Under the pieces are notes generated by a model that saw nothing but the letters and a program-made list of their open reading frames with translations, did not search any database and was not told where the DNA came from. The position numbers and the translations under genes are program-made. Positions 3,109 to 13,591 of a DNA stretch of 13,591 nt are shown here, one piece after another; the stretch's first letter is position 1, and every line of letters starts with the position of its first letter. Source of the stretch: Candidatus Thorarchaeota archaeon (lineage in GTDB: Archaea; Asgardarchaeota; Thorarchaeia; Thorarchaeales; Thorarchaeaceae); NCBI GenBank assembly GCA_003345545.1, contig PRDH01000011.1, positions 1 to 13,591 on the forward strand, given 5' to 3'.

Positions 3109-4911
3109 TTACTTTACTATCTCGAACTTCAGATCTATACTGAGACCCTCTTCAGGATGCCCCTTTACACGGTCGCGTAGTGTGGGATAGGCACCACCAT
3201 ATTTCTCTGCAAGTCGTCGGACAAGATGGAGCCCGACACCTCCGTATCTCCGAGTTGGGTCAAAGAAATCGATCTTCTTTGCATCTGAAATTCCAGGACC
3301 GTTGTCGGTAATCGTGAGAGTGTATGTCTTGCCAGATGACTTCCCTGAGACACTGACGGTCTTGTACAATTCTTCTTTCGGATTATGAATGACTGCGTTC
3401 TCTAGGAGATTCCATATGAGCTGACTCAGTGCTTGGTCCGCATAGACCATGACATCGCCTTTGAATCCACTGAGATCGGTTCGGACTCCCCGTTGTTTGA
3501 AGAGAAGTTCAGCCTCAGCCTCTACTACTGGACGGAGACGCACAGGTATGAGAGGCTCCGACTTTGATTCCTCAGCACGACGCACTTTTTGAATCAGTTC
3601 AAGGCAACGAAGGGCTCCGTCCATGATGTATCTCTTTGAGCGGACTATCTGGTCAGGCTTGGAGTCGGTATCCAAGAAATCGCTCCCCGCAACAATCAGC
3701 TGCAGCTGATTGCCAATATCATGTAGAAGCAGGTCTAGCAGGAAGTACACCTCAGCCTCAACCTTCTTCATATCAGAAATATCAGTGAATACTGCCATAC
3801 TTCCAGCATACACGCCATCTCGATTCAGTACTGGTGATGCTGAGACCATGACGGGAACAAGGCCGCCCTTCTTGTGAATGAGCTGAGCCTCATAGTGCTC
3901 CAATTTTCCCTCTTTTCGTGCCTTGACTTTTTCGTGCACGTTGTTCTCAGTCCAGCCGTGTAGAATCTCCGTTATTGGATGCCCGACCAGTTCCGCGGGT
4001 GAATCATACCCAAGCATACGGCACAATGCGTCATTGACCAGAACCATCTTGCCATCGCCATCGTCAACACTCAATCCTGAGTCCATTGTTTCCACGAGTG
4101 AGCGATAGCGATATTCTGATTCTTCAAGCGCATGAGCACTCTTCAGTTCCTCAGTAATATCGAGGAGCTGTCCGACTGTTCTAACCTTACCATCTCTGCC
4201 TCTTATGGATCCAACACTCATCCGGATATTACGTGATGCTCCATCCTTGCGTACCACCTTGAACTCGTAGATGGTGGGAACTTCCTCACCCCGTTGACGT
4301 TTTATGTACCGCTCCGAAACTAGTTCAAGACTATCAGGGTGAAGAAACTCACGAAAGTCATGGCCTACGATCTCGCTCCTGAGCCTTCCAAGGATATCAC
4401 AGAGCTTGTCATTCACATATCTGAATCTGTAATCATCGCCGACTATGAGTGTCCCGCTGAGATTATTGTAGTCCACAATATACTCCAGTATCTCTTTTTG
4501 TGAGAGTATCTTCTCTTCAACGGCCTCCCTACGAGCTAGATCAACAACATAAGCAATATAGCCTGTGACCTTCTCGTCTGTCTTGATTGCATTGGCGTAC
4601 ACCTGCGTTGGAACAGCCACACCACTAGGACCGACTACACGAAGTGAGATTGATGTGGGTGTTGCACCCTCGCGGAGCTGATTCAGTCCTTCATGCACCA
4701 GAGCGTGTTGCTCTGGGATGACTAGGGAATCTAGATGAACTCCCGCAGCTATCCTGGAATCATCCAGGTTCAGTAGTTTTGCCGCAGAAGGATTTGCATA
4801 GGTCAGCATGAAATTTAGATCGAACTCCACTACCGGAATCAGCATCATATCTGCCACTTCGTGGAATCCTCTTCTATGCGGGAGCGGCTCTCGCCGGCGT
4901 TTTTGTTTCAT
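3109..4911 (-). CDS. Soluble PAS-domain sensor histidine kinase (3 PAS/PAC + HisKA-like + HATPase_c)
   Basis: Three PAS repeats (LTYANPSAAKLL; FRYVNDKLCDILG...FLHPDS; VLVNDALCRMLGY) ending in DL/DIT/DIS. H-box LLLHDIGNQLQ, N-box LIWNLLENAVIH, G1 DNGPGI, G2 GGVGLHLV. No evident TM helix. Start set at ATG 4911 (MKQKRR); the 5052 start would overlap the divergent promoter region. Confidence 0.92.
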   Translation of the reverse strand: MKQKRRREPLPHRRGFHEVADMMLIPVVEFDLNFMLTYANPSAAKLLNLDDSRIAAGVHLDSLVIPEQHALVHEGLNQLREGATPTSISLRVVGPSGVAVPTQVYANAIKTDEKVTGYIAYVVDLARREAVEEKILSQKEILEYIVDYNNLSGTLIVGDDYRFRYVNDKLCDILGRLRSEIVGHDFREFLHPDSLELVSERYIKRQRGEEVPTIYEFKVVRKDGASRNIRMSVGSIRGRDGKVRTVGQLLDITEELKSAHALEESEYRYRSLVETMDSGLSVDDGDGKMVLVNDALCRMLGYDSPAELVGHPITEILHGWTENNVHEKVKARKEGKLEHYEAQLIHKKGGLVPVMVSASPVLNRDGVYAGSMAVFTDISDMKKVEAEVYFLLDLLLHDIGNQLQLIVAGSDFLDTDSKPDQIVRSKRYIMDGALRCLELIQKVRRAEESKSEPLIPVRLRPVVEAEAELLFKQRGVRTDLSGFKGDVMVYADQALSQLIWNLLENAVIHNPKEELYKTVSVSGKSSGKTYTLTITDNGPGISDAKKIDFFDPTRRYGGVGLHLVRRLAEKYGGAYPTLRDRVKGHPEEGLSIDLKFEIVK

Positions 4912-4947
4912 GGCCGTGCATCTACAGGCTTTGATGGTCACCACTAT

Positions 4948-4967
4948 ATGTCCAAAATCGATTGGAC
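4948..4967. promoter_or_regulatory. Candidate regulator-binding site: GTCCAA-N6-TTGGAC inverted repeat overlapping the 16-mer AATCGATTTTGGACAT (minus strand)
   Basis: Lies in the divergent kinase/Fe-S-AOR spacer. The 16-mer (4963 to 4948) matches 10968-10983 in the second divergent spacer at 15/16. Confidence 0.45.
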
Positions 4968-5090
4968 GCAGAGTGGAATACAAGACTGAACCACTAATAT
5001 CTTTGTATGATGTATACGACCAAGAGGAACAACTTAAGAGCCAACTATACATTTGCGTGGGGGCTTACAGAATACAGGAGAAACCACCCT

Positions 5091-5582
5091 GTGAAAGACA
5101 TACTCGCCATCGACTTGAGACTGTGCACAGGATGTCGCAGCTGTGAGCTTGCCTGCTCTATTGCCCATACGCGATCTTTCAACCCGAAGAGGTCGAGGAT
5201 TCAGATTCTGAAAGAGGAGGTCAGGAATCTCGTTGTACCCATGGTATGCCTGCAATGCGAACGGCCCCTCTGCCAAGAGGCGTGTCCGAATGGCGCGATA
5301 GTGGAGAACAAACACGGAGTTCTCTACGTTGATAGTGAAATCTGCATTGGTTGCATGAACTGCGTGACTGCATGTGTATACGGTGGGATTGCCATCGACC
5401 CCGTGACTAGAAGAGCAATAAAGTGCGACCTGTGTAAGGGAGATCCAGCTTGCGCCAAGGCATGCCAATACGGTGCAATCAGTCTCAGCACCTCAGAGGC
5501 AGGAGGGCTCAATCAACGCAGGAGAGGGGTCGTGCCAGCATTTCGAACGCTGGGAATCCAGGTAGAGGAGGGAAGAGAGTGA
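5091..5582 (+). CDS. 4x[4Fe-4S] electron-transfer protein (DmsB/HydN/AorA-like), probable small subunit of the adjacent AOR
   Basis: 16 Cys in four motifs: CTGCRSCELAC, CLQCERPLCQEAC, CIGCMNCVTAC, CDLCKGDPACAKAC. GTG start at 5091 with AGGAG at 5076-5080. The stop overlaps the AOR start (GTGA). Confidence 0.93.
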   Translation: MKDILAIDLRLCTGCRSCELACSIAHTRSFNPKRSRIQILKEEVRNLVVPMVCLQCERPLCQEACPNGAIVENKHGVLYVDSEICIGCMNCVTACVYGGIAIDPVTRRAIKCDLCKGDPACAKACQYGAISLSTSEAGGLNQRRRGVVPAFRTLGIQVEEGRE

Positions 5583-7507
5583 CATTTCCATACAAGGGCT
5601 ATGCAGGGAAATACCTGGATGTCGACCTCACAAAGGGCGTTGTCCATGTGAAAGACATGGAGAAGGAGTGGGCAAGGCTTTTCCTCGGAGGCAGCGGGGT
5701 TTCTTCAAAGATACTCTGGGAGAGAACGAATGCCAGGACAGACCCGTTGTCACCCCAGAATATACTGATCGCAGGGACCGGGCCCCTCACTGGTGCATTG
5801 TTCTCACCATCGGGGAGAATGATGTTTGCAGCAAGAGGCCCCCTGACAGGTGTATGGGCGGAGTCCCATGTTGGTGGATTCATGGGTCCTGAGATGAAGT
5901 ACGCGGGATTCGACTTTGTCATCTTCAATGGGCGTTCCAAGAAGCCCGTCTATCTCTTCATGAGGGACGGACACGCAGAGCTCAGGGACGCCTCGCACGT
6001 CTGGGGGCAAGAGACCAATATCACAACAGTGATGATCCGTGAAGAACACAAGGACCCGTCGATTGAGACTGCGGTCATTGGGCCTGCGGGAGAGCACGGA
6101 GTACTCTACGGTTCCATCACTGTGGACTTCTATCGTGCAGCAGGGCGAGCCGGTCTTGGGGCGGTGATGGGGTCTAAGAATCTGAAGGGCATAGCAGCCT
6201 CTGGAGCCATCGGTCTGGAGGCGTATGACATGGACAAATTCGTCGAGGCCAGCGCACGCGAGGTGGCAAAGCTCAACGACCCTCTTTGGAAGGAATCACT
6301 TGCATCACTAAGAAAGTATGGGACCACAGGCCTTGTAGCCGTCATCAATCAGATTGGAAGACTCCCCACAAAGAACCACTGGACTGGCTACTATGAGCTG
6401 GCCGAGGATATCGGTCCTGAGATCATTGCAGAGAAGTACAGGATTGGACAAGAAGCATGCTATGGATGTGCAATCGGCTGCAAATACATCATCCGCATAA
6501 AGGACGGTGACTACGCTACAGAACCTGTCGGTGGCCAAGAATATGAAACAATCATGGCCTTTGGTTCTAACTGCCTGAATAACGATATTGAGTCCATCCT
6601 CCATCTGGGCAAGAGGTGTGACTTGCTTGGTCTGGATACCATATCATGCGGTAAGACAATCGGATTTGCAATGGAGCTCTTTGAGAAGGGCATCTTGACG
6701 GAGAAGGACACAGGAGGTATTGACCTCACCTGGGGCAACAAGGAGGCACAGGTCAAGCTTGTCGAGATGATTGCTAGGAGGGAGGGTATAGGTGACATTC
6801 TCGCAAACGGGGTCAGAAAGGCAGCCGAGCAGATAGGTGGTGATGCATGGAAGTATGCAGTCCATGTGAAGGGGCTCGAGGCCTCGGGACAGGACCCACG
6901 GGCACATCAGAGCGTTGGTCTGACATATGCCACAAATGTGCGCGGAGCAGACCACCTTAGAAGCCTGTCAAGCCTAGAAGAGCTGGGATATCCGAATATC
7001 GTCATCCAACGGTTTGGTGAGGAGAAAGCGGATGCAATCCTAAATATCATGTCACCAAAGTACAAGGGCCAGGTTGTGTGGGACATGGAGGACCTGTATG
7101 CCTTGGTCGATTCTGCAGTGATATGTAAGTACTCAACGATGTGGCCTCCGGTATTCTATTATGACACGTTTGTCAATGTCATCCCGTCCCTGACTGGCAT
7201 GAAGGAGTGGTCAGACCCGAAGTACGTGCGGCAGACTGCGGAGAGGATAAGCCACCTCAGACGAGCATTCAATCACAGGCTTGGAATCACGCGGAAAGAC
7301 GAGACCCTGCCTCCGAGGTTGCTGCATGAGCCGATGCCAACCGGACCTGCAAAGGGTGGACTTCCAGACCTTGACGAGATGCTTGATGAGTACTACGAGT
7401 ATCGTGGCTGCGACAGAGAGACCGGGTACCCGAAGGAGTCGAAGCTCAAAGATCTGCAGCTAGACTTCGTGGTTGATACGCTCAAGCCCAAGGGAATGAC
7501 GCGGTAG
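5579..7507 (+). CDS. aor: Tungsten-containing aldehyde:ferredoxin oxidoreductase (AOR/WOR) family catalytic subunit
   Basis: GYAGKYLDVDLT N-terminus, GPLTG...GGFMGPEMKYAGFD, IGPAGE, AAGRAGLGAVMGSKNLK, [4Fe-4S] ligands CYGCAIGC plus ICKY, EYET, DLLGLDTISCG, VKGLE, GADH. Real start is GTG 5579, overlapping the upstream TGA; the ORF-track extension from 5450 is not AOR-like. Confidence 0.95.
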   Translation: MTFPYKGYAGKYLDVDLTKGVVHVKDMEKEWARLFLGGSGVSSKILWERTNARTDPLSPQNILIAGTGPLTGALFSPSGRMMFAARGPLTGVWAESHVGGFMGPEMKYAGFDFVIFNGRSKKPVYLFMRDGHAELRDASHVWGQETNITTVMIREEHKDPSIETAVIGPAGEHGVLYGSITVDFYRAAGRAGLGAVMGSKNLKGIAASGAIGLEAYDMDKFVEASAREVAKLNDPLWKESLASLRKYGTTGLVAVINQIGRLPTKNHWTGYYELAEDIGPEIIAEKYRIGQEACYGCAIGCKYIIRIKDGDYATEPVGGQEYETIMAFGSNCLNNDIESILHLGKRCDLLGLDTISCGKTIGFAMELFEKGILTEKDTGGIDLTWGNKEAQVKLVEMIARREGIGDILANGVRKAAEQIGGDAWKYAVHVKGLEASGQDPRAHQSVGLTYATNVRGADHLRSLSSLEELGYPNIVIQRFGEEKADAILNIMSPKYKGQVVWDMEDLYALVDSAVICKYSTMWPPVFYYDTFVNVIPSLTGMKEWSDPKYVRQTAERISHLRRAFNHRLGITRKDETLPPRLLHEPMPTGPAKGGLPDLDEMLDEYYEYRGCDRETGYPKESKLKDLQLDFVVDTLKPKGMTR

Positions 7508-7569: not shown

Positions 7570-8661
7570 ATGGCAGACATCAGTGTTGAGTTGCTTGGAC
7601 TCAGATTCAGGAACCCGATTCTCACCGCAGCTGGACCGGCCTCGAGAGATGGTATGACACTCCTCAATGCAGCTGCAGGTGGAGCTGGTGGGCTTGTAGC
7701 CAAGACTGTGAGCGTCAGGCCGGCAGATGTCCCAAGGCCGAATATGGCAGCTCTCAAGGAGGGAAGAGTTGGATCAAGACTGGGTATGCTCAATGCGGAA
7801 CTCTGGAGTGAACTTCCCCTCGAAACTTGGCTTGAAAGAGAGTATCCGATAGCACTGAGCTCGGGGCTGCCACTGATTGCCAGTGTTGGGTACACTCCTA
7901 AAGATGTCAGCGCGATTGCGCCAAAACTAGAGAAGGCTGGCGCAAAGGCGATTGAGTTCAGTACGCACTATGTCGGAGGCCATGTTGAGATCGCTAAGGC
8001 GCTGAGAGATGCCGTGGACATCCCGATTATCGCGAAGCTGAGCCCAAAGGTGGATGTGGCAGAGGTGGCGCGAGCACTGGAGCCCTATGTTGACGCCATA
8101 GCTGCAATCAATACCTTTGGCCCATGTCTCAGGATAGACGTGGAGTCAGGAAGACCTATGCTTGGGAGCAGTGACGGTTACGGATGGATGAGTGGCTCTG
8201 CCCTGAAGCCCATAGCACTGAGATGTGTTGCGGATATTGCACAGGCCATCAGACTCCCGATTATTGGAGTGGGCGGTGTGATGTCAGGCGAAGATGTCAT
8301 CGAGTTCCTCATGGCAGGAGCATCAGCAGTTCAGGTGTGTACAGCCGCAATCCTTGAAGGGCATACGGTATACGGGAAGATAGCAGGACAGGTTGAGGAG
8401 TGGCTGGACAGACATGACTACTCCTCCATACAGGATGTCCAGGGAATGGCGCTTCAGCACTTGAAACAGGGGGTCTCTCTGGAGCCACCACCCACAGTAG
8501 ATCTGGACAAGTGTACACGCTGCGGACTATGTGAGAAGTCCTGCGTCTATGGAGCAATCACAGTGAAGAAATCAGAGAACATCTTTGCAATAGACGCTGA
8601 CAAGTGTGAGGCCTGTGGAATGTGCATCTCTGTATGCCCATACTATGCTCTTAGCTATTGA
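7570..8661 (+). CDS. Dihydropyrimidine dehydrogenase PreA/PydA-like (class 1 DHOD fold) FMN protein with C-terminal 2x[4Fe-4S]; non-canonical active-site loop
   Basis: FRNPILTAAGP, GGLVAKT, GMLNAELWSE, AKLSP, AINT, GWMSGSALKPIAL, IGVGGV, GASAVQVCTA. C-terminal CTRCGLCEKSC and CEACGMCISVC. The usual ELNxSCP loop reads IEFSTHYVGG. Confidence 0.88.
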   Translation: MADISVELLGLRFRNPILTAAGPASRDGMTLLNAAAGGAGGLVAKTVSVRPADVPRPNMAALKEGRVGSRLGMLNAELWSELPLETWLEREYPIALSSGLPLIASVGYTPKDVSAIAPKLEKAGAKAIEFSTHYVGGHVEIAKALRDAVDIPIIAKLSPKVDVAEVARALEPYVDAIAAINTFGPCLRIDVESGRPMLGSSDGYGWMSGSALKPIALRCVADIAQAIRLPIIGVGGVMSGEDVIEFLMAGASAVQVCTAAILEGHTVYGKIAGQVEEWLDRHDYSSIQDVQGMALQHLKQGVSLEPPPTVDLDKCTRCGLCEKSCVYGAITVKKSENIFAIDADKCEACGMCISVCPYYALSY

Positions 8662-8733
8662 GCGTTTCCCGATTGCCTCTGAGAGCACAAGCAGTTGTCT
8701 AAGCTGACTTGATGCATTATATCACTACAGTCC

Positions 8734-9918
8734 TCAGACAAAGAGGATATCATCGATGCCAGTGGTGAGTCTTCTAGCTCTCCCTTTGGTGACCGCATAG
8801 TCGTTTTCGATACGTACACCACCAACGGATTTCAGATAGACGCCTGGTTCAATGGCCATGACATGTCCCTCAAGGAATGGTTCCTCACGGCTGTACATGC
8901 TGGGCAATTCATGCACCTCAAGGCCTATACCATGCCCGAGCCCGTGCGTCATGCCGTCCTTCGCATCTGGATTGAGTCGACGGGAGTCGAACCCATGTTG
9001 CTTCAGGGTGTTGACACAGGCGAGGTTCACCTTATCGATGAGAGTACCATCAGTCAGAGCATCCACGGATGCTTCGGCAGCAGCAGCAACAGCATCGAAC
9101 ATCTTCTGCACGCGCCTTGGAACAGGTCCTCTCACAACAGTGCGAGTCACGTCGGCAACGTATCGTTCCAGTTTCAACCTTGGAAACACATCCATGATGA
9201 CAGGAGCTCCGCCCTTGAACCTGTCACCTTGCGCACCGAGATAGTGCCAGTCAAAGGCCTTGCTTCCGACTGCGACAATGGCATCCTCAGAGGACTCTGC
9301 CCCCCTGTCAAGCAGAAAGTGTTCCAGGGCCAGCTTGATCATTCCCACAGTCAGCGGGTTCCCCTTGTGCATCAGAACCTTGTTGGCTCCAATCGTGCTG
9401 TTCTTCACCATCTCTACGACCTGCATAATGGCACCAGTCGTCGCATCACCAGCCTTCTTGATGGTCTTGATCTCTTTCACAGACTTTCTGGCTCGCGCCT
9501 CAAGAACAAGGTCACGAACCACCTTGACGGTGTACCCCATCTTCTGAAGCATCACAAGCAGACTTGCAGGAAACTCATCAGGAACACCAAGAATCTTTCC
9601 TGAGAACTGAGCTCTCAATAGGGAGCCGTAGATCTGGTCCATGTTGTCATTGACCTTCTTGTTCTCATGGAGTATCTTCAGAACGACATCGGTGAAGTCA
9701 TGTGTGTGAGTGATGAAGCTCTCCTTTACGACGCGTTCAAGTGCGAGGAATGAGGCGGCTACAAGAGGCGCATCTCCGCGATTCTTGAGATAGATTATCT
9801 CGTCAGTGGAGCGAAATCCTGTCAGCCAATACACACTAGGATTGTCAAAGGCACTACCACATGTCAGTAGTGCGTCGATTCCATACCTCTCCATGAGGGG
9901 ATCTAGGTCTTCATACAT
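8734..9918 (-). CDS. M24 family metallopeptidase (Xaa-Pro dipeptidase/aminopeptidase P-like) with creatinase-like N-terminal domain
   Basis: Metal ligands D (MDVFP), D (ADVTRT), H (HGLGHGIGLEVHE), E (IEPGVY), E (GVRIEND); N-terminal SVYWLTGF. Start probably ATG 9918 (MYEDL) with GAGG upstream; GTG 9948 is the alternative. Confidence 0.92.
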   Translation of the reverse strand: MYEDLDPLMERYGIDALLTCGSAFDNPSVYWLTGFRSTDEIIYLKNRGDAPLVAASFLALERVVKESFITHTHDFTDVVLKILHENKKVNDNMDQIYGSLLRAQFSGKILGVPDEFPASLLVMLQKMGYTVKVVRDLVLEARARKSVKEIKTIKKAGDATTGAIMQVVEMVKNSTIGANKVLMHKGNPLTVGMIKLALEHFLLDRGAESSEDAIVAVGSKAFDWHYLGAQGDRFKGGAPVIMDVFPRLKLERYVADVTRTVVRGPVPRRVQKMFDAVAAAAEASVDALTDGTLIDKVNLACVNTLKQHGFDSRRLNPDAKDGMTHGLGHGIGLEVHELPSMYSREEPFLEGHVMAIEPGVYLKSVGGVRIENDYAVTKGRARRLTTGIDDILFV

Positions 9919-9968
9919 TTGACTTGCCTCGGCCCGATGATGGGGCACATCATGAAAAAGGCTTCTGT

Positions 9969-10877
9969 TTACGCCTGAATATACGCCCGCATGCGGGACT
10001 CAACCATGGACCGCGTGGGCATGTCATAGGGTCCCACAGACTCTACATTGAAGGAGGCACAGGTCGCCGCGAACAGCCCTGCGCGCCGGACATCACCAGA
10101 CCGCATGTACTCTAGCAGGAAACCAATCGTGTATGTGTCGCCGCAACCAGTCGTGTCTGCTTGGACCCTCGCAAGCACTAACGGAATCTTCACCTGTGAA
10201 TTTCGAGTATAGATGACGGAACCTCGTTGGCCATGAGTCACTAGAACTACTCTTGGACCAAGACTGAGTATCTGACTGGCGGCTGATAGCTCGGATTCTG
10301 CTCTAACTGTGGCGAACAACTCACTTACATGAAATTTCACGACGTCCACTAGTTCCAGAATCTCATCCCGCGCTGTCCAATTCTTTGGAGTGACCACCCC
10401 ACTACGGTCGATCGATCGGGTGTAGCCCTGAACATCGAGAGACGTGAGGGCGGCGCTTGAGCGGGCCTGTTTAATACACTCAGTGCTAATCTCTTCAGCT
10501 GTCAGCGGAGAGAAATGGATGACATTCGCCTCAAGATGGTCGTCTGTGAAGTCCTTTGGCCTGATTGGGGGAGCTAGCGCTTCCACATACTGAACGCGGG
10601 CACCAGAAGTATCATACTTGTTCACGAACCGTGTTGATTTCGGTCCCTCAGTGAGTAGTCCGGAGAGATCAAGACCTGAGGAGCGCAGGGTGTCACGATA
10701 GCTCTGCTCGAAGTCAGTTCCTACCTTCGTGACAATCCCAGCCCCGAATGCGCCAATAGAGGGGGCAAGCATTGCATAAGCAGTACCTCCTCCAAGCGCC
10801 TCTTTGGTAGTATTAGGCGTTATGATGAGGTCTCTGCTAAGATGACCTGCAACAACAATTTCCAATGGACTTCTCAC
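9969..10877 (-). CDS. PfkB/ribokinase family carbohydrate or nucleoside kinase
   Basis: N-terminal VAGHLSRD...LGGGTAY, KVGTDF, VTHGQRGS, anion-hole motif DTTGCGDTY, C-terminal AATCASFNVESVG. GTG start. Confidence 0.9.
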   Translation of the reverse strand: MRSPLEIVVAGHLSRDLIITPNTTKEALGGGTAYAMLAPSIGAFGAGIVTKVGTDFEQSYRDTLRSSGLDLSGLLTEGPKSTRFVNKYDTSGARVQYVEALAPPIRPKDFTDDHLEANVIHFSPLTAEEISTECIKQARSSAALTSLDVQGYTRSIDRSGVVTPKNWTARDEILELVDVVKFHVSELFATVRAESELSAASQILSLGPRVVLVTHGQRGSVIYTRNSQVKIPLVLARVQADTTGCGDTYTIGFLLEYMRSGDVRRAGLFAATCASFNVESVGPYDMPTRSMVESRMRAYIQA

Positions 10878-11006: not shown

Positions 11007-11288
11007 TTGGCTCAGGTCACTGTGAAATTCTTTGCTACTGTCAGAGAAGTGACAGGGGTAAAGAGCAGAGAGATGGAGGCGAACACTATTAGAGACCTCC
11101 TTGATGGCTTGAAAGTGGCCTATGGAGAGAGGTTTACAGACACAGTGTTCGATAGAGCAACAGGCAATCTGAAGCAGTTCTATTCTTGCATGGTGAATGG
11201 TAGACGGATTGAGTTGCTTGATGGCTATGAAACGAAACTCTCAGACAATGATGCGGTGGCGCTGTTCCCACCTGTTGGGGGCGGATGA
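11007..11288 (+). CDS. moaD: MoaD/ThiS/SAMP ubiquitin-like sulfur carrier protein
   Basis: 93 aa, TTG start. VTVKFFATVRE N-terminus, VNGRRI, and DAVALFPPVGGG C-terminal di-glycine. Such genes commonly accompany AOR-family genes. Confidence 0.9.
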   Translation: MAQVTVKFFATVREVTGVKSREMEANTIRDLLDGLKVAYGERFTDTVFDRATGNLKQFYSCMVNGRRIELLDGYETKLSDNDAVALFPPVGGG

Positions 11289-11289
11289 G

Positions 11290-12699
11290 ATGAGTAGTTC
11301 ACTTACATCAAAACACAGGAAACAGACTGGCAGAGGAAGTGTGGACCTCGTCGTACGAAATGCGCAGCTATTGATGGAGTCTGGACTTGTGCGGGGAGGA
11401 CTAGGAGTCAAAGGAGGAACCATCTGCATCATCGCCACTGATGAGCATCTCCCCGAGGGAGATGTCACAATCGACGCACGAGAAAGAATCCTGATGCCAG
11501 GACTGATAGATGGGCATGCACACATCCATGACCCGGCTATGCTGTCCCACGAGAGCTTTCAATCAGGCTCCAGAGCTGCAGCAGGAGGGGGAGTCACGAC
11601 AGTCATCGATATGCCTCTGACCAGTCAAGTTGACTCAATCAAGTCGGTTGAAGAGAAGATACAGCAGGGCAAGGCACACTCAGTGGTCGATTTCAGCTTC
11701 TATGCAGGGATGATCAACTCTGGCAACGTATCTATCATACCGACCTTCATAGAGAAAGGAATTGCAGCCTTCAAGGCCTTTACCTGCGCACCCTATCAGG
11801 CAGGAACAGGAGTAATAGCAAAGGCCTTGAGTGAGGTCTCAGAGTACGGAGGACATCTCACAGTACACTCTGAGGACCAGGGTGTTCTTGATGAGTTCAA
11901 GAAGGACATGGATGGTGAATGGGATGCTCCAATCAGTCATTCACTGGCACGACCCAATCTTGCTGAGCAGCTTGCTGTAAGGCAGAACATCTCCCTGGCG
12001 GAACAGACAGGAGGCCACCTGCATATAGCGCACGTCACTACGCGAGAGGGTCTTAGTGAGATTGAGAGTGCAAAACTGCGTGGCATCATGGTGACTACAG
12101 AGGTATGTCCGCATCACCTTGTGTTCTATAGGGATGATATGAACCGTCTGGGGCCAAGAAGCAAGATGAACCCGCCTCTCAGGACCAAGGAGGACAGAGC
12201 TGCACTCTGGTCAGCACTGCTCCGAGGGATGATTGACATCACAGTGAGCGACCATGCGCCCTGTCCTATTGAGAAGAAAGAGGCGGGAAAAGATGATATC
12301 AGAGAGGCATGGGCGGGAGTCGATGGAACTCAGATGATTCTCAGGGTCCTGCTCTCAGAGGGAATCAACAAGGGAAGGCTCTCGTACACAAGGCTGCTCA
12401 GGGTGGCAGCACGGAACCCTGCACGTATCTTTGGCCTTTACCCAAAGAAAGGAACACTCCGGATAGGCTCTGATGCAGACTTCGTCATCATCGACCCCGA
12501 CAGAGAGGAGAAGATCACTGCAGAGATGATGTTCTCGAAGTGTGAGTGGACTCTCTATGAGGGAATGACAATGAAGGGCTCCCCGGAGATGACCTTCGTT
12601 CGGGGGACGCAGGTATTTGGCGACGGCAAAATACTCACCAAACCAGGACGAAGTGAATTCCAAGCTATGGGAAGCGGGGGACGACCAGTAGGAGAGTGA
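11290..12699 (+). CDS. Cyclic amidohydrolase (allantoinase/hydantoinase/dihydroorotase superfamily), most similar in motifs to allantoinase or L-hydantoinase
   Basis: PGLIDGHAH (HxH), AAAGGGVTTVIDMP, AFKAF (carbamylated Lys), VHSED, HIAHVT, EVCPHHL, KMNPPLR, SDHAP, AWAGV, NPARIFGLYPKKG. Start is ATG 11290, 1 nt after the moaD stop, or GTG 11341 (VDLVVRNA, GAGG upstream). Confidence 0.92.
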   Translation: MSSSLTSKHRKQTGRGSVDLVVRNAQLLMESGLVRGGLGVKGGTICIIATDEHLPEGDVTIDARERILMPGLIDGHAHIHDPAMLSHESFQSGSRAAAGGGVTTVIDMPLTSQVDSIKSVEEKIQQGKAHSVVDFSFYAGMINSGNVSIIPTFIEKGIAAFKAFTCAPYQAGTGVIAKALSEVSEYGGHLTVHSEDQGVLDEFKKDMDGEWDAPISHSLARPNLAEQLAVRQNISLAEQTGGHLHIAHVTTREGLSEIESAKLRGIMVTTEVCPHHLVFYRDDMNRLGPRSKMNPPLRTKEDRAALWSALLRGMIDITVSDHAPCPIEKKEAGKDDIREAWAGVDGTQMILRVLLSEGINKGRLSYTRLLRVAARNPARIFGLYPKKGTLRIGSDADFVIIDPDREEKITAEMMFSKCEWTLYEGMTMKGSPEMTFVRGTQVFGDGKILTKPGRSEFQAMGSGGRPVGE

Positions 12700-12702
12700 A
12701 TT

Positions 12703-13194
12703 GTGAGCGAACTCAAATTTGTCTTTGGCGACCCGCAAGTCTGTTCAGGCTGTATGATCTGCGTGAACGTATGCAGCATGTATTACTTCAAGGTGATAAG
12801 CCCAACACGGTCACGTGTGCGAGTTGTGAGAGCTGAGCCAGGTCTGGATTTCCCACTCTTCTGCCGCAACTGCGAGGATGCACCCTGCATCGATGCCTGC
12901 CCATCGGCTGCCTTGAGTCGCACCTCCAAGGGAATTGTCATTGTGAACAATAACAAGTGTGATGGTACAGGTGAGTGCGTTGAAGCTTGTCCGTACAATG
13001 CCATCCACATCAATCCGGACACAGGGAAAGCCATCAAGTGCATCCAGTGTGGCCAGTGCGTGGACCGCTGCCCTGCAGACGCCCTGTTCATGACCATGAA
13101 AGAGGACCTTGCCAAGAGGGATAAGGAGGGACGAATGATGGCACTGTACGAGAAGCATAAGACAGAGCTGTACGGCGAGGAGGAGGATTATTGA
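12703..13194 (+). CDS. Multi-cluster Fe-S electron-transfer protein (DmsB/HydN/AorA-like), probable small subunit of the second AOR
   Basis: CSGCMICVNVC, CRNCEDAPCIDAC, CDGTGECVEAC (one Cys replaced by Thr), CIQCGQCVDRC. GTG start; the stop overlaps the next ATG (TGATG). Confidence 0.93.
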   Translation: MSELKFVFGDPQVCSGCMICVNVCSMYYFKVISPTRSRVRVVRAEPGLDFPLFCRNCEDAPCIDACPSAALSRTSKGIVIVNNNKCDGTGECVEACPYNAIHINPDTGKAIKCIQCGQCVDRCPADALFMTMKEDLAKRDKEGRMMALYEKHKTELYGEEEDY

Positions 13195-13591
13195 TGTTCG
13201 GTATGGGTGGGGAGATCATCCGGGTTGACCTGACAACGGGAAGCATCAAGAAAGAGCCCATTGACAAGAAGCTAGTCCGCAAATACCTCTTGGGAGCCGG
13301 ATATCTCTCGAGGGTCCTCTATGATATGATTCCTGGAGGAACAGATCCGCTAGGAAAAGACAACGTTCTTGGATTTGCAACAGGCCTGCTCACTGGATCC
13401 ATGTTTCCTCAGTCCTCGAGACACGTCATTGCCGCACTATCACCTCTGACAAATATCTGGGGAGAGAGTCACGCAGCAGGATTCTGGGGGCCAGAACTCA
13501 AGCTTGCAGGCTATGATGCCATCATATTCACTGGAGCGTCGCCAACGCCTGTTTACCTGCATATCGAAGACTCAATCATCGAGCTTCTGGA
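13194..13591 (+). CDS. aor: Second AOR/WOR-family tungsten oxidoreductase, N-terminal part (3'-partial)
   Basis: Manual translation from ATG 13194 (GGAGGAGG upstream): MFGMGGEIIRVDLTTGSIKKEPIDKKLVRKYLLGAGYLSRVLYDMIPGGTDPLGKDNVLGFATGLLTGSMFPQSSRHVIAALSPLTNIWGESHAAGFWGPELKLAGYDAIIFTGASPTPVYLHIEDSIIELL, a classic AFOR_N sequence open to the window end. Not in the ORF track. Confidence 0.93.
   Translation, partial: MFGMGGEIIRVDLTTGSIKKEPIDKKLVRKYLLGAGYLSRVLYDMIPGGTDPLGKDNVLGFATGLLTGSMFPQSSRHVIAALSPLTNIWGESHAAGFWGPELKLAGYDAIIFTGASPTPVYLHIEDSIIELL

Follow-up and report, generated by a model that had tools for sequence, protein, structure and literature searches.

A cysteine-less, short-loop relative of dihydropyrimidine dehydrogenase encoded in a tungsten oxidoreductase gene island of a Thorarchaeota archaeon, and its probable kinship with UacX

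The window analyzed here, meaning the whole stretch of DNA, is the entire 13.6-kb contig C11 of a Thorarchaeota-like archaeal genome (G000) of 2.69 Mb that is 93% complete. Within it lies the gene of an iron-sulfur flavoprotein, here called the reductase, that has the fold of dihydroorotate dehydrogenase (DHOD) and dihydropyrimidine dehydrogenase (DPD), enzymes built around flavin mononucleotide (FMN). A first-pass annotation had drawn attention to the protein as a homolog of PreA and DHOD in which the catalytic N-x-S-C-P loop is replaced by F-S-T-H-Y. The gene and the two parts of it on which most of the argument turns are as follows.

7570..8661, + strand: reductase gene, 363 amino acids, with a DHOD/DPD-fold FMN domain and a C-terminal 2x[4Fe-4S] ferredoxin domain; a His-Tyr-loop (probably UacX-type) reductase homolog (open reading frame, Pfam, PDB and Foldseek matches, tree)
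7951..7980, + strand: I128-G137 (IEFSTHYVGG), comprising the end of strand beta4 and the six-residue loop that stands in place of the Asn-x-Ser-Cys-Pro active-site loop (raw sequence, codon arithmetic)
8488..8658, + strand: 2x[4Fe-4S] domain, with C315/C318/C321/C325 and C346/C349/C352/C356 (Fer4 Pfam matches at residues 307-361; all eight Cys invariant in 20 homologs)

The reading frame is open over its 363 codons with zero internal stops, both in the open reading frame listing and on translation. Residues 5-278 match the Pfam family PF01180 (DHO_dh) at 1.5e-33, with 116.7 bits against a cut-off of 27. The iron-sulfur domain is at the C-terminus only, and both of its CxxCxxCxxxC motifs are kept. 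The FMN-site residues K45, K156, G235-G236 and C257-T258 are invariant in an alignment of 20 homologs, and the K45-T46, K156-L-S-P, I-N181-T182 and G-V-G-G motifs are likewise present and invariant among homologs. The earlier statements that the frame is unbroken and that the FMN and Fe-S motifs are intact are thus borne out.

The reductase falls below every equivalog cut-off in a scan of the NCBIfam models. The closest families are PreA (model NF006183, 198.5 bits, cut-off 335) and class 1 PyrD (TIGR01037, 183 bits, cut-off 270). When PDB sequences were searched with phmmer the top match was pig DPD, and L. lactis PyrDB was found at 1.6e-27. The top Foldseek matches were also pig DPD chains (E ~2e-24), followed by class 1 DHODs with a TM-score of ~0.75 normalised to the target. 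The AlphaFold2 model has a mean predicted local distance difference test (pLDDT) score of 77. Fold, domain order and the C-terminal pair of [4Fe-4S] clusters are common to the reductase, pig DPD (domains IV-V), E. coli PreA and clostridial PydAc, although the reductase lacks the extra N-terminal ferredoxin domain of PydAc. The TIM-barrel FMN fold is shared with class 1B PyrD, the partner of PyrK, but the window protein has neither the catalytic cysteine nor an adjacent PyrK, and it carries the additional Fe-S domain. A Pfam scan found no gene for a PreT-type FAD/NAD(P)H partner in the window.

A dedicated cysteine acid that protonates carbon is the defining chemistry of class 1 DHOD and DPD. 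In the phmmer alignments the segment AIEFSTHYVGGHVEI of the reductase pairs with the pig DPD loop and with L. lactis PyrDB, and the loop is ~13 residues shorter than the canonical ELNxSCP loop and contains no cysteine. Read without gaps against pig DPD, S131 takes the position of Asn668, H133 that of Ser670 and Y134 that of the catalytic Cys671. In the AlphaFold2 model residues 127-131 form a strand and 138-148 a helix, joined by a six-residue loop (132-137). Because only this short loop separates strand from helix, essentially nothing is predicted to remain of the mobile lid that DHOD and DPD possess. Other parts of the DPD site are kept: Lys45 and Lys156 are present, as are N75 (DPD Asn609) and N181/T182 (Asn736/Thr737), so that two of the three pyrimidine-binding asparagines are retained, and an N-x-E-L-x-S motif resembles the N-I-E-L-I-S of DPD.

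The altered loop is not peculiar to this genome. More than 100 clusters at 64-95% identity to the window protein, all of ~363-365 amino acids, were found in Thor-, Loki- and Hodarchaeota. E129, F130, S131, H133, Y134 and V135 are invariant in 20 of 20 Asgard homologs (56-89% identical to the window protein). A sister family, ~35% identical, reads E-[VI]-S-T-H-Y in all 120 listed homologs of a protein encoded in a bacterial-type uric-acid cluster (locus L175), and E-x-S-(T)-H-Y is invariant across 64 sequences overall. Conservation of this extent far exceeds what chance would give. When these 64 His-Tyr-loop proteins were compared with 30 Cys-loop enzymes, both groups were found to retain K45, T46, N75, K156 and N181. 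Invariant in the 64 are W79, Y108, S131, H133, Y134, S158, G184-P185 and W206, of which the three aromatic residues W79, Y108 and W206 are specific to the His-Tyr-loop clade.

We sampled the family by an exhaustive profile-free search that gave 330 representatives at E <= 1e-30. Three kinds of loop occur among them: the long canonical N-x-S-C-P, many short loops without cysteine, and S-(T/V/I/C)-H-Y, which is nested within the short ones. A maximum-likelihood tree was calculated for 129 sequences with the loop columns removed. Every short-loop form falls into one clade of 83 sequences, with a Shimodaira-Hasegawa-like approximate likelihood ratio test (SH-aLRT) value of 97, apart from the Cys-loop PreA and PyrD types. 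Nested within it is a clade of 33 sequences (SH-aLRT 94) that contains all 23 xxHY sequences. The L175-type operon proteins belong to it, as does the window protein, which is placed in a subclade of 24 (SH-aLRT 98). The active-site signature is the same in this subclade and in that of the bacterial operons. No Cys-loop form was found inside the His-Tyr-loop clade, and PydA-type relatives retain LSCPH. Judged by sequence and tree, the His-Tyr-loop proteins form a distinct, conserved subfamily with a short loop and no catalytic cysteine.

A further, large sister group in the tree consists of DHOD-like Fe-S flavoproteins with short loops (representatives P0141, P0157, P0165, P0192 and others). 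These read E-(L/V)-V-S-Y or E-L-P-A-Y, and have I-D-S replacing I-N-T.

The first-pass annotation had therefore been right on several counts. The replacement of the Cys loop by F-S-T-H-Y is confirmed, and its proposal of a separate short-loop subfamily agrees with the single xxHY clade and with a loop unchanged in the 20 and the 120 homologs. It had also advised that homologs with the motif be collected and their gene neighborhoods compared; the motif proves not to be unique to the window, and in bacteria and Heimdallarchaeia the contexts are of uricolytic type. A reading of the gene as decayed is ruled out by the intact frame and the invariant motif.

These contexts connect the clade with a reductive uric-acid pathway that has been described in gut bacteria (Li et al., 2025, Life Metab, PMC12507026). 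In that pathway XdhD produces 2,8-dioxopurine ('yanthine'), which is dearomatized by a flavoenzyme, NADH-dependent YgfK in E. coli and UacX in C. difficile. C. difficile UacX (Q181U4) is a ferredoxin-type PF01180 protein without an FAD domain. Together with SsnA it converted 2,8-dioxopurine into ureidomethyl-hydantoin with reduced methyl viologen as donor, and reduction of 2,8-dioxopurine was seen only if coupled to SsnA. UacX and YgfK are treated as alternatives beside SsnA (PMC12507026). The window protein resembles UacX as described there in combining a PF01180 FMN domain and Fe-S clusters with the lack of any FAD/NAD(P)H domain.

Members of the His-Tyr-loop clade from bacteria and from Heimdallarchaeia are encoded within YgeY/YgeW/HyuA/YgeX clusters, with an SsnA-like amidohydrolase on one side and an XdhD-type molybdoenzyme on the other. 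At loci L175-L177 the order is YgeY, a gene of the ornithine transcarbamylase (OTCase) family, HyuA-like, SsnA-like, reductase, FAD subunit, Fer2 and XdhD-like. The L175-type YgeY is 56% identical to that of E. coli, the SsnA-like gene overlaps the start of the reductase gene, and the reductase, with the loop 'FFEVSTHY', is 34% identical to the window protein. Complete clusters, including YgeX-like pyridoxal phosphate enzymes, surround the reductase genes of cultured Fusibacter tunisiensis (L179) and of a Heimdallarchaeaceae metagenome-assembled genome (MAG; L180). In Aminiphilus (L257), one of the YgeY-centered loci described below, the gene order is xanthine dehydrogenase (XDH), AmhB-like, SsnA-like, reductase, and the last shares 46% identity with the window protein. 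A reductase 53% identical to the window protein (L004) is encoded beside an SsnA-like amidohydrolase, XdhC, molybdenum cofactor genes and XDH subunits. Elsewhere the gene adjoins an SsnA-like gene and those for the small and FAD subunits of XDH (L174), is flanked by two amidohydrolases (L172, Undinarchaeales) or is followed by an NCS1 nucleobase permease gene (L008).

An independent sample of context was provided by 80 bacterial loci centered on YgeY. A PF01180 gene is present in 10 of the 80; in all ten it encodes E[IVF]S[TCV]HY and an SsnA-like gene adjoins it, and YgfK is absent. YgfK is found in 26 of the 80, none of which has a PF01180 gene, and the Cys-loop form of PF01180 is absent from the 80 loci. 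Members of the clade thus occupy the UacX slot, with SsnA-like, HyuA-like and XdhD-type neighbors and to the exclusion of YgfK, and both the E-x-S-T-H-Y loop and W79/Y108/W206 of the window protein recur in them. Since they replace YgfK beside SsnA, the clade would be classed as UacX type by the operational definition in PMC12507026, that is, a PF01180 protein in place of YgfK beside SsnA. E. coli YgfK itself was dropped as a homology reference, direct comparison giving short and weak local matches only.

The same article proposes a luciferase-family F420-dependent reductase as a stand-in for YgfK/UacX in Chloroflexota. At one of our loci (L006/L007, P0128) genes for F420 biosynthesis and for a luciferase-family oxidoreductase lie close to that of a His-Tyr-loop homolog ('ELSTHYI').

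Because its branch holds the UacX slot in bacterial anaerobic uric-acid clusters, we conclude that the reductase gene encodes a functional variant and not a decayed protein. Because the clade fills that slot to the exclusion of YgfK, the reading we favor is that the window protein is a UacX-type reductase of an N-heterocyclic, oxopurine ring, fed by ferredoxin or polyferredoxin, to which we assign a probability of roughly two in three. The gene context suggests a substrate other than uracil or dihydroorotate, and a bulkier one with an oxopurine-type ring like that reduced by UacX. In this genome a canonical class 1B PyrD ('ELNLSCPH') is encoded with PyrK on contig C68, and a housekeeping PyrD role for the reductase was rejected on this ground. 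A different and bulkier substrate had been suggested from the start, and the oxopurine-type context and the separate PyrD/PyrK pair both support it. The list of substrates then offered for assay did include 2,8-dioxopurine; what it missed was that the branch occupies the slot of UacX, an enzyme type published in 2025.

The window encodes a number of further proteins around the reductase.

3-608, - strand: GNAT acetyltransferase open reading frame, running off the contig start
1643..3085, - strand: AmhA, a COG0402 amidohydrolase, deaminase/SsnA-like (Amidohydro_1, NCBIfam, 34 of 37 loci)
3109..5052, - strand: PAS sensor histidine kinase, divergent from the ferredoxin-oxidoreductase operon (PAS and HATPase_c; syntenic)
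5091..5582, + strand: polyferredoxin, AorA-like, translationally coupled to AOR1 (starts of orthologs agree; 16 invariant Cys; Fer4 in syntenic genes)
5579..7507, + strand: AOR1, of the tungsten aldehyde:ferredoxin oxidoreductase (AOR) family (AFOR_N and AFOR_C; closest structures 9mqx, 1aor and 8c0z)
8734..9948, - strand: M24-family hydrolase, directly downstream of the reductase on the opposite strand (Peptidase_M24; syntenic in 49 of 63 loci)
9969..10877, - strand: PfkB-family kinase (PfkB; syntenic)
11007..11288, + strand: MoaD/ThiS-like small protein, encoded by the first gene of the second operon (open reading frame; PF02597 ThiS in the syntenic L001 and L002 genes)
11290..12699, + strand: AmhB, a cyclic amidohydrolase, HyuA/allantoinase-like, with an alternative start at 11197 (37 of 45 loci)
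12703..13194, + strand: second polyferredoxin (Fer4 families)
13194..13591, + strand: N-terminus of a second AOR paralog, running off the contig (open-ended reading frame; full-length syntenic AOR in L001 and most related loci)

The stop codon of AOR1 is 62 nucleotides upstream of the reductase gene. AOR1 matches 9mqx, 1aor and 8c0z, all of them bona fide AORs, at 1e-126 to 1e-116; a BamB-like, ring-reducing role for it was rejected, the BamB match being 1.6e-65 against 1e-126 for the bona fide AORs. AmhA scores 413 bits on the 5'-deoxyadenosine deaminase model of NCBIfam (cut-off 522) and 230 bits on that of SsnA (cut-off 444), and is 33% identical to the SsnA-like amidohydrolase that adjoins the L004 reductase. 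AmhB is below the allantoinase, dihydropyrimidinase and dihydroorotase cut-offs of NCBIfam, with 307 bits on the dihydropyrimidinase model; it shares 31% identity with E. coli HyuA and 44% with the L004 amidohydrolase Amh444.

The arrangement of the island was compared in 80 related archaeal loci, with counts limited to those having enough flanking sequence. An AOR gene is upstream of the reductase in 45 of 45. COG0402 amidohydrolases were found in 34 of 37 loci, and cyclic amidohydrolases in 37 of 45. The order is AmhA (-), PAS kinase (-), polyferredoxin, AOR, a ClC channel gene in many genomes, reductase, M24 (-), PfkB (-), MoaD, AmhB, polyferredoxin and AOR. The linkage to polyferredoxin plus AOR and to amidohydrolases is kept at 51-56% identity in Baldr-, Heimdall- and Hermodarchaeota, Bathyarchaeota, Nitrososphaeria and a Thermoproteota MAG labeled Kor4. 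A search of the literature for a link between Asgard AORs and DHOD-like proteins found nothing.

Compared with the bacterial uricolytic clusters, the island has two tungsten AOR/polyferredoxin modules, M24 and PfkB in the places of XdhD/YgfM, YgeY, YgeW and YgeX; the exchange of the molybdenum partner for two tungsten modules is common to Thor- and Lokiarchaeota. Since AmhA and AmhB are kept while XDH, YgeX and YgeY were not found in the genome, a core of ring reduction and ring opening looks conserved, with the upstream (molybdenum) and downstream (YgeY/YgeX) steps replaced or missing.

The oxidation of aldehydes by AOR provides electrons of very low potential, and from the gene neighborhood we infer that AOR is the electron source for the reductase. 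The two tungsten AOR and polyferredoxin modules would then replace the molybdenum XdhD partner, most simply as a very low-potential source. The electrons would pass through the two C-terminal [4Fe-4S] clusters to the FMN, which would transfer hydride to an oxopurine-type N-heterocycle, either 2,8-dioxopurine or a closely related compound. Asn75, Asn181/Thr182 and the aromatic residues W79, Y108 and W206 might hold the ring, and in the lidless pocket the three aromatic side chains could stack against a bicyclic system. The short loop S131-T132-H133-Y134 would take the place of the Asn/Cys lid, with Tyr134 at the position of the cysteine, together with His133, a candidate proton donor, polar clamp or substrate polarizer. 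In the published products, SsnA hydrolysis leaves C6 of 2,8-dioxopurine as CH2 and C5 as CH (PMC12507026), so the first step can be hydride transfer to C6 with protonation of N1. If so, the carbon-protonating cysteine of DPD and DHOD would not be needed, and this may explain its loss. The unstable dihydro product would be trapped by the ring-opening amidohydrolases AmhA and/or AmhB of the island, and the published coupling of reduction to SsnA fits the strict adjacency of amidohydrolase genes.

A more far-reaching proposal is that Thor- and Lokiarchaeota possess a purine-ring reductase wired to tungsten, in which AOR modules replace XdhD-YgfM, and that the whole clade, UacX included, uses Tyr/His in place of Cys. 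We offer this only tentatively, and as a whole it is doubtful. It could take one of two forms. The AOR modules might be a dedicated source of very low-potential electrons that drives an unfavorable dearomatization, or they might be the first AOR-family enzymes to act on N-heterocycles.

Several observations weigh against assigning the window protein to the UacX type. A xanthine-dehydrogenase-family gene is lacking (no PF02738 match) in the 93%-complete genome, and a search of the genome for YgeX and YgeY gave no clear orthologs, so that the precise substrate, and the pathway too, may be different. The best SsnA-like gene lies outside the island (G000:C76:32503-33747; L181:7426-8754) and is 30% identical to E. 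coli SsnA, and AmhA is nearer to deaminase models and to E. coli GuaD than to SsnA. The tie to the published activity of Q181U4 is one of operon position and clade. Homologs of E. coli SsnA came from Enterobacteria only and loci found with E. coli HyuA from Proteobacteria only, and scans with the L175-type and YgeY alignments gave no C. difficile record. With the cluster enzymes of Fusibacter and L175 the window protein shares only 34-37% identity (46% with that of Aminiphilus), and it lies in a sister subclade. The AlphaFold2 model is of low confidence in two hairpins on the substrate side, residues 54-77 and 183-208, and the catalytic roles given to His133 and Tyr134 are pure inference.

Three other explanations have to be considered. 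The reductase might be an electron-transfer subunit like AorC, forming with the first polyferredoxin and AOR1 a tungsten/Fe-S/FMN complex that passes electrons from aldehydes to a soluble acceptor, with no heterocycle reduced. The gene order polyferredoxin-tungsten subunit-flavoprotein does parallel aorA-aorB-aorC of Aromatoleum aromaticum (PDB 8c0z, whose chain A matches AOR1 at 1.8e-116), the gap of 62 nucleotides is short, and AOR is upstream at all 45 archaeal loci noted above. The flavoprotein of the window is however an FMN enzyme of the DHOD fold whose substrate pocket is conserved, where AorC has an FAD/NAD-binding fold. Retention of Asn75 and Asn181/Thr182, the invariant new loop and W79/Y108/W206 argue for selection on a pocket that binds substrate. 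Moreover, clade members occur in operons that have no AOR at all (L172, L174, L175, L179, L180, L257 and the 10 of 80 YgeY loci), and ClC genes split AOR from the reductase in many Thorarchaeota loci. We consider a purely electron-transferring role unlikely, and the suggestion in the first-pass annotation that the protein might act in that way alone is disfavored by the retained asparagines, the invariant loop and the relatives beside SsnA-like genes without AOR. In a bacterial metagenome (L173:3392-9200) the order Fer-BFN-Fer-AOR-radical SAM-(His-Tyr-loop reductase)-glutamate dehydrogenase is found with no amidohydrolase within 8 kb, which favors the AorC-like role; it is the sole context we have seen that fits an AOR-coupled function without ring opening.

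The protein might instead be an ordinary dihydropyrimidine dehydrogenase, ferredoxin-dependent like PydAc, or a DHOD with another acid/base, AmhB serving as the dihydropyrimidinase of a reductive pyrimidine pathway. Ferredoxin-dependent PydA is known (PMC7332683), the best family and structural matches are PreA, class 1 PyrD and pig DPD chains, and AmhB does score on the dihydropyrimidinase model. Yet the PreA and PyrD scores are far under their cut-offs, the catalytic cysteine and Asn668 are replaced in every member of a clade with no Cys-loop form, and the contexts are of purine type (XdhD, SsnA, YgeY), not PydB/PydC, in a genome that already has PyrD/PyrK. This seems very unlikely. It is also conceivable, if improbable, that the substrate is a non-purine N-heterocycle or ene-type compound (a pterin, a nicotinate-type ring, a hydantoin) that the enzyme reduces or oxidizes, and that the island merely resembles a uricolytic one. 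The lack of XDH, YgeX and YgeY orthologs, the deaminase-like character of AmhA, a NicX-like gene in the Heimdall-type locus L002 and the separation of the window's subclade from that of the bacterial uricolytic operons would all be consistent with this. Against it, the window's own subclade is also found beside XDH and SsnA-like genes (L004, L257) and a nucleobase permease (L008), and the active-site signature is identical in both subclades. The UacX-type reading is the one we retain.

The enzyme type was already published in 2025, while its Cys-less signature and the invariance of this across the clade are apparently not described in PMC12507026, whose main text makes no mention of cysteine. 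The tungsten-linked archaeal version is a new variant. If the assignment is right, E-x-S-T-H-Y together with W79, Y108 and W206 would serve as a sequence signature of those purine-ring reductases that take the place of YgfK in clusters for anaerobic uric-acid breakdown, their genes being currently annotated as 'dihydroorotate dehydrogenase' or '4Fe-4S binding protein'. A branch of a textbook family that has no catalytic cysteine also poses a question of mechanism. The pathway would be extended to archaea, namely the Asgard Thor-, Loki-, Heimdall-, Hermod- and Baldrarchaeota, and Bathyarchaeota, Nitrososphaeria and Undinarchaeales. In most archaeal loci tungsten AOR modules replace the molybdenum hydroxylase, the Undinarchaeales and the L004 archaeon being exceptions. 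This bears on the use of nucleobases by uncultured sediment archaea, and on the roles of the many unassigned AOR paralogs of Asgard genomes.

One or two ClC channel genes lie between AOR and the reductase in many Thorarchaeota loci, and there is none in the present window. Voltage_CLC genes were located at L016:8082-9956, L026:6259-8055 and 8141-9946, L175:9666-10922 and L179:20894-21074. The Thorarchaeota copies that were checked carry CBS domains, and in bacterial clusters of uricolytic type there is likewise a Voltage_CLC gene after the XdhD-type gene. The ClC-type gene is a recurrent companion of the pathway, possibly as a transporter of substrate or anion.

Elsewhere in the genome, the SsnA-like gene on contig C76 is 31% identical to that of the Heimdall cluster, and its neighbors are without Pfam match. 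Contig C47 carries two OTCase-family paralogs (G000:C47:54322-55347 and 71634-72665; L182 and L183) that share 34-44% identity with the OTCases encoded in the uricolytic clusters of bacteria and Heimdall; one is next to a penicillin-amidase-family gene and the other to peptide ABC transporter genes. Both the C76 and the C47 neighborhoods are uninformative on the pathway. There are 12-13 AOR paralogs in the genome. A 5'-truncated AOR fragment (profile positions 92-385) opens contig C80 (G000:C80:14-943), and it may be the continuation of the second AOR of the window.

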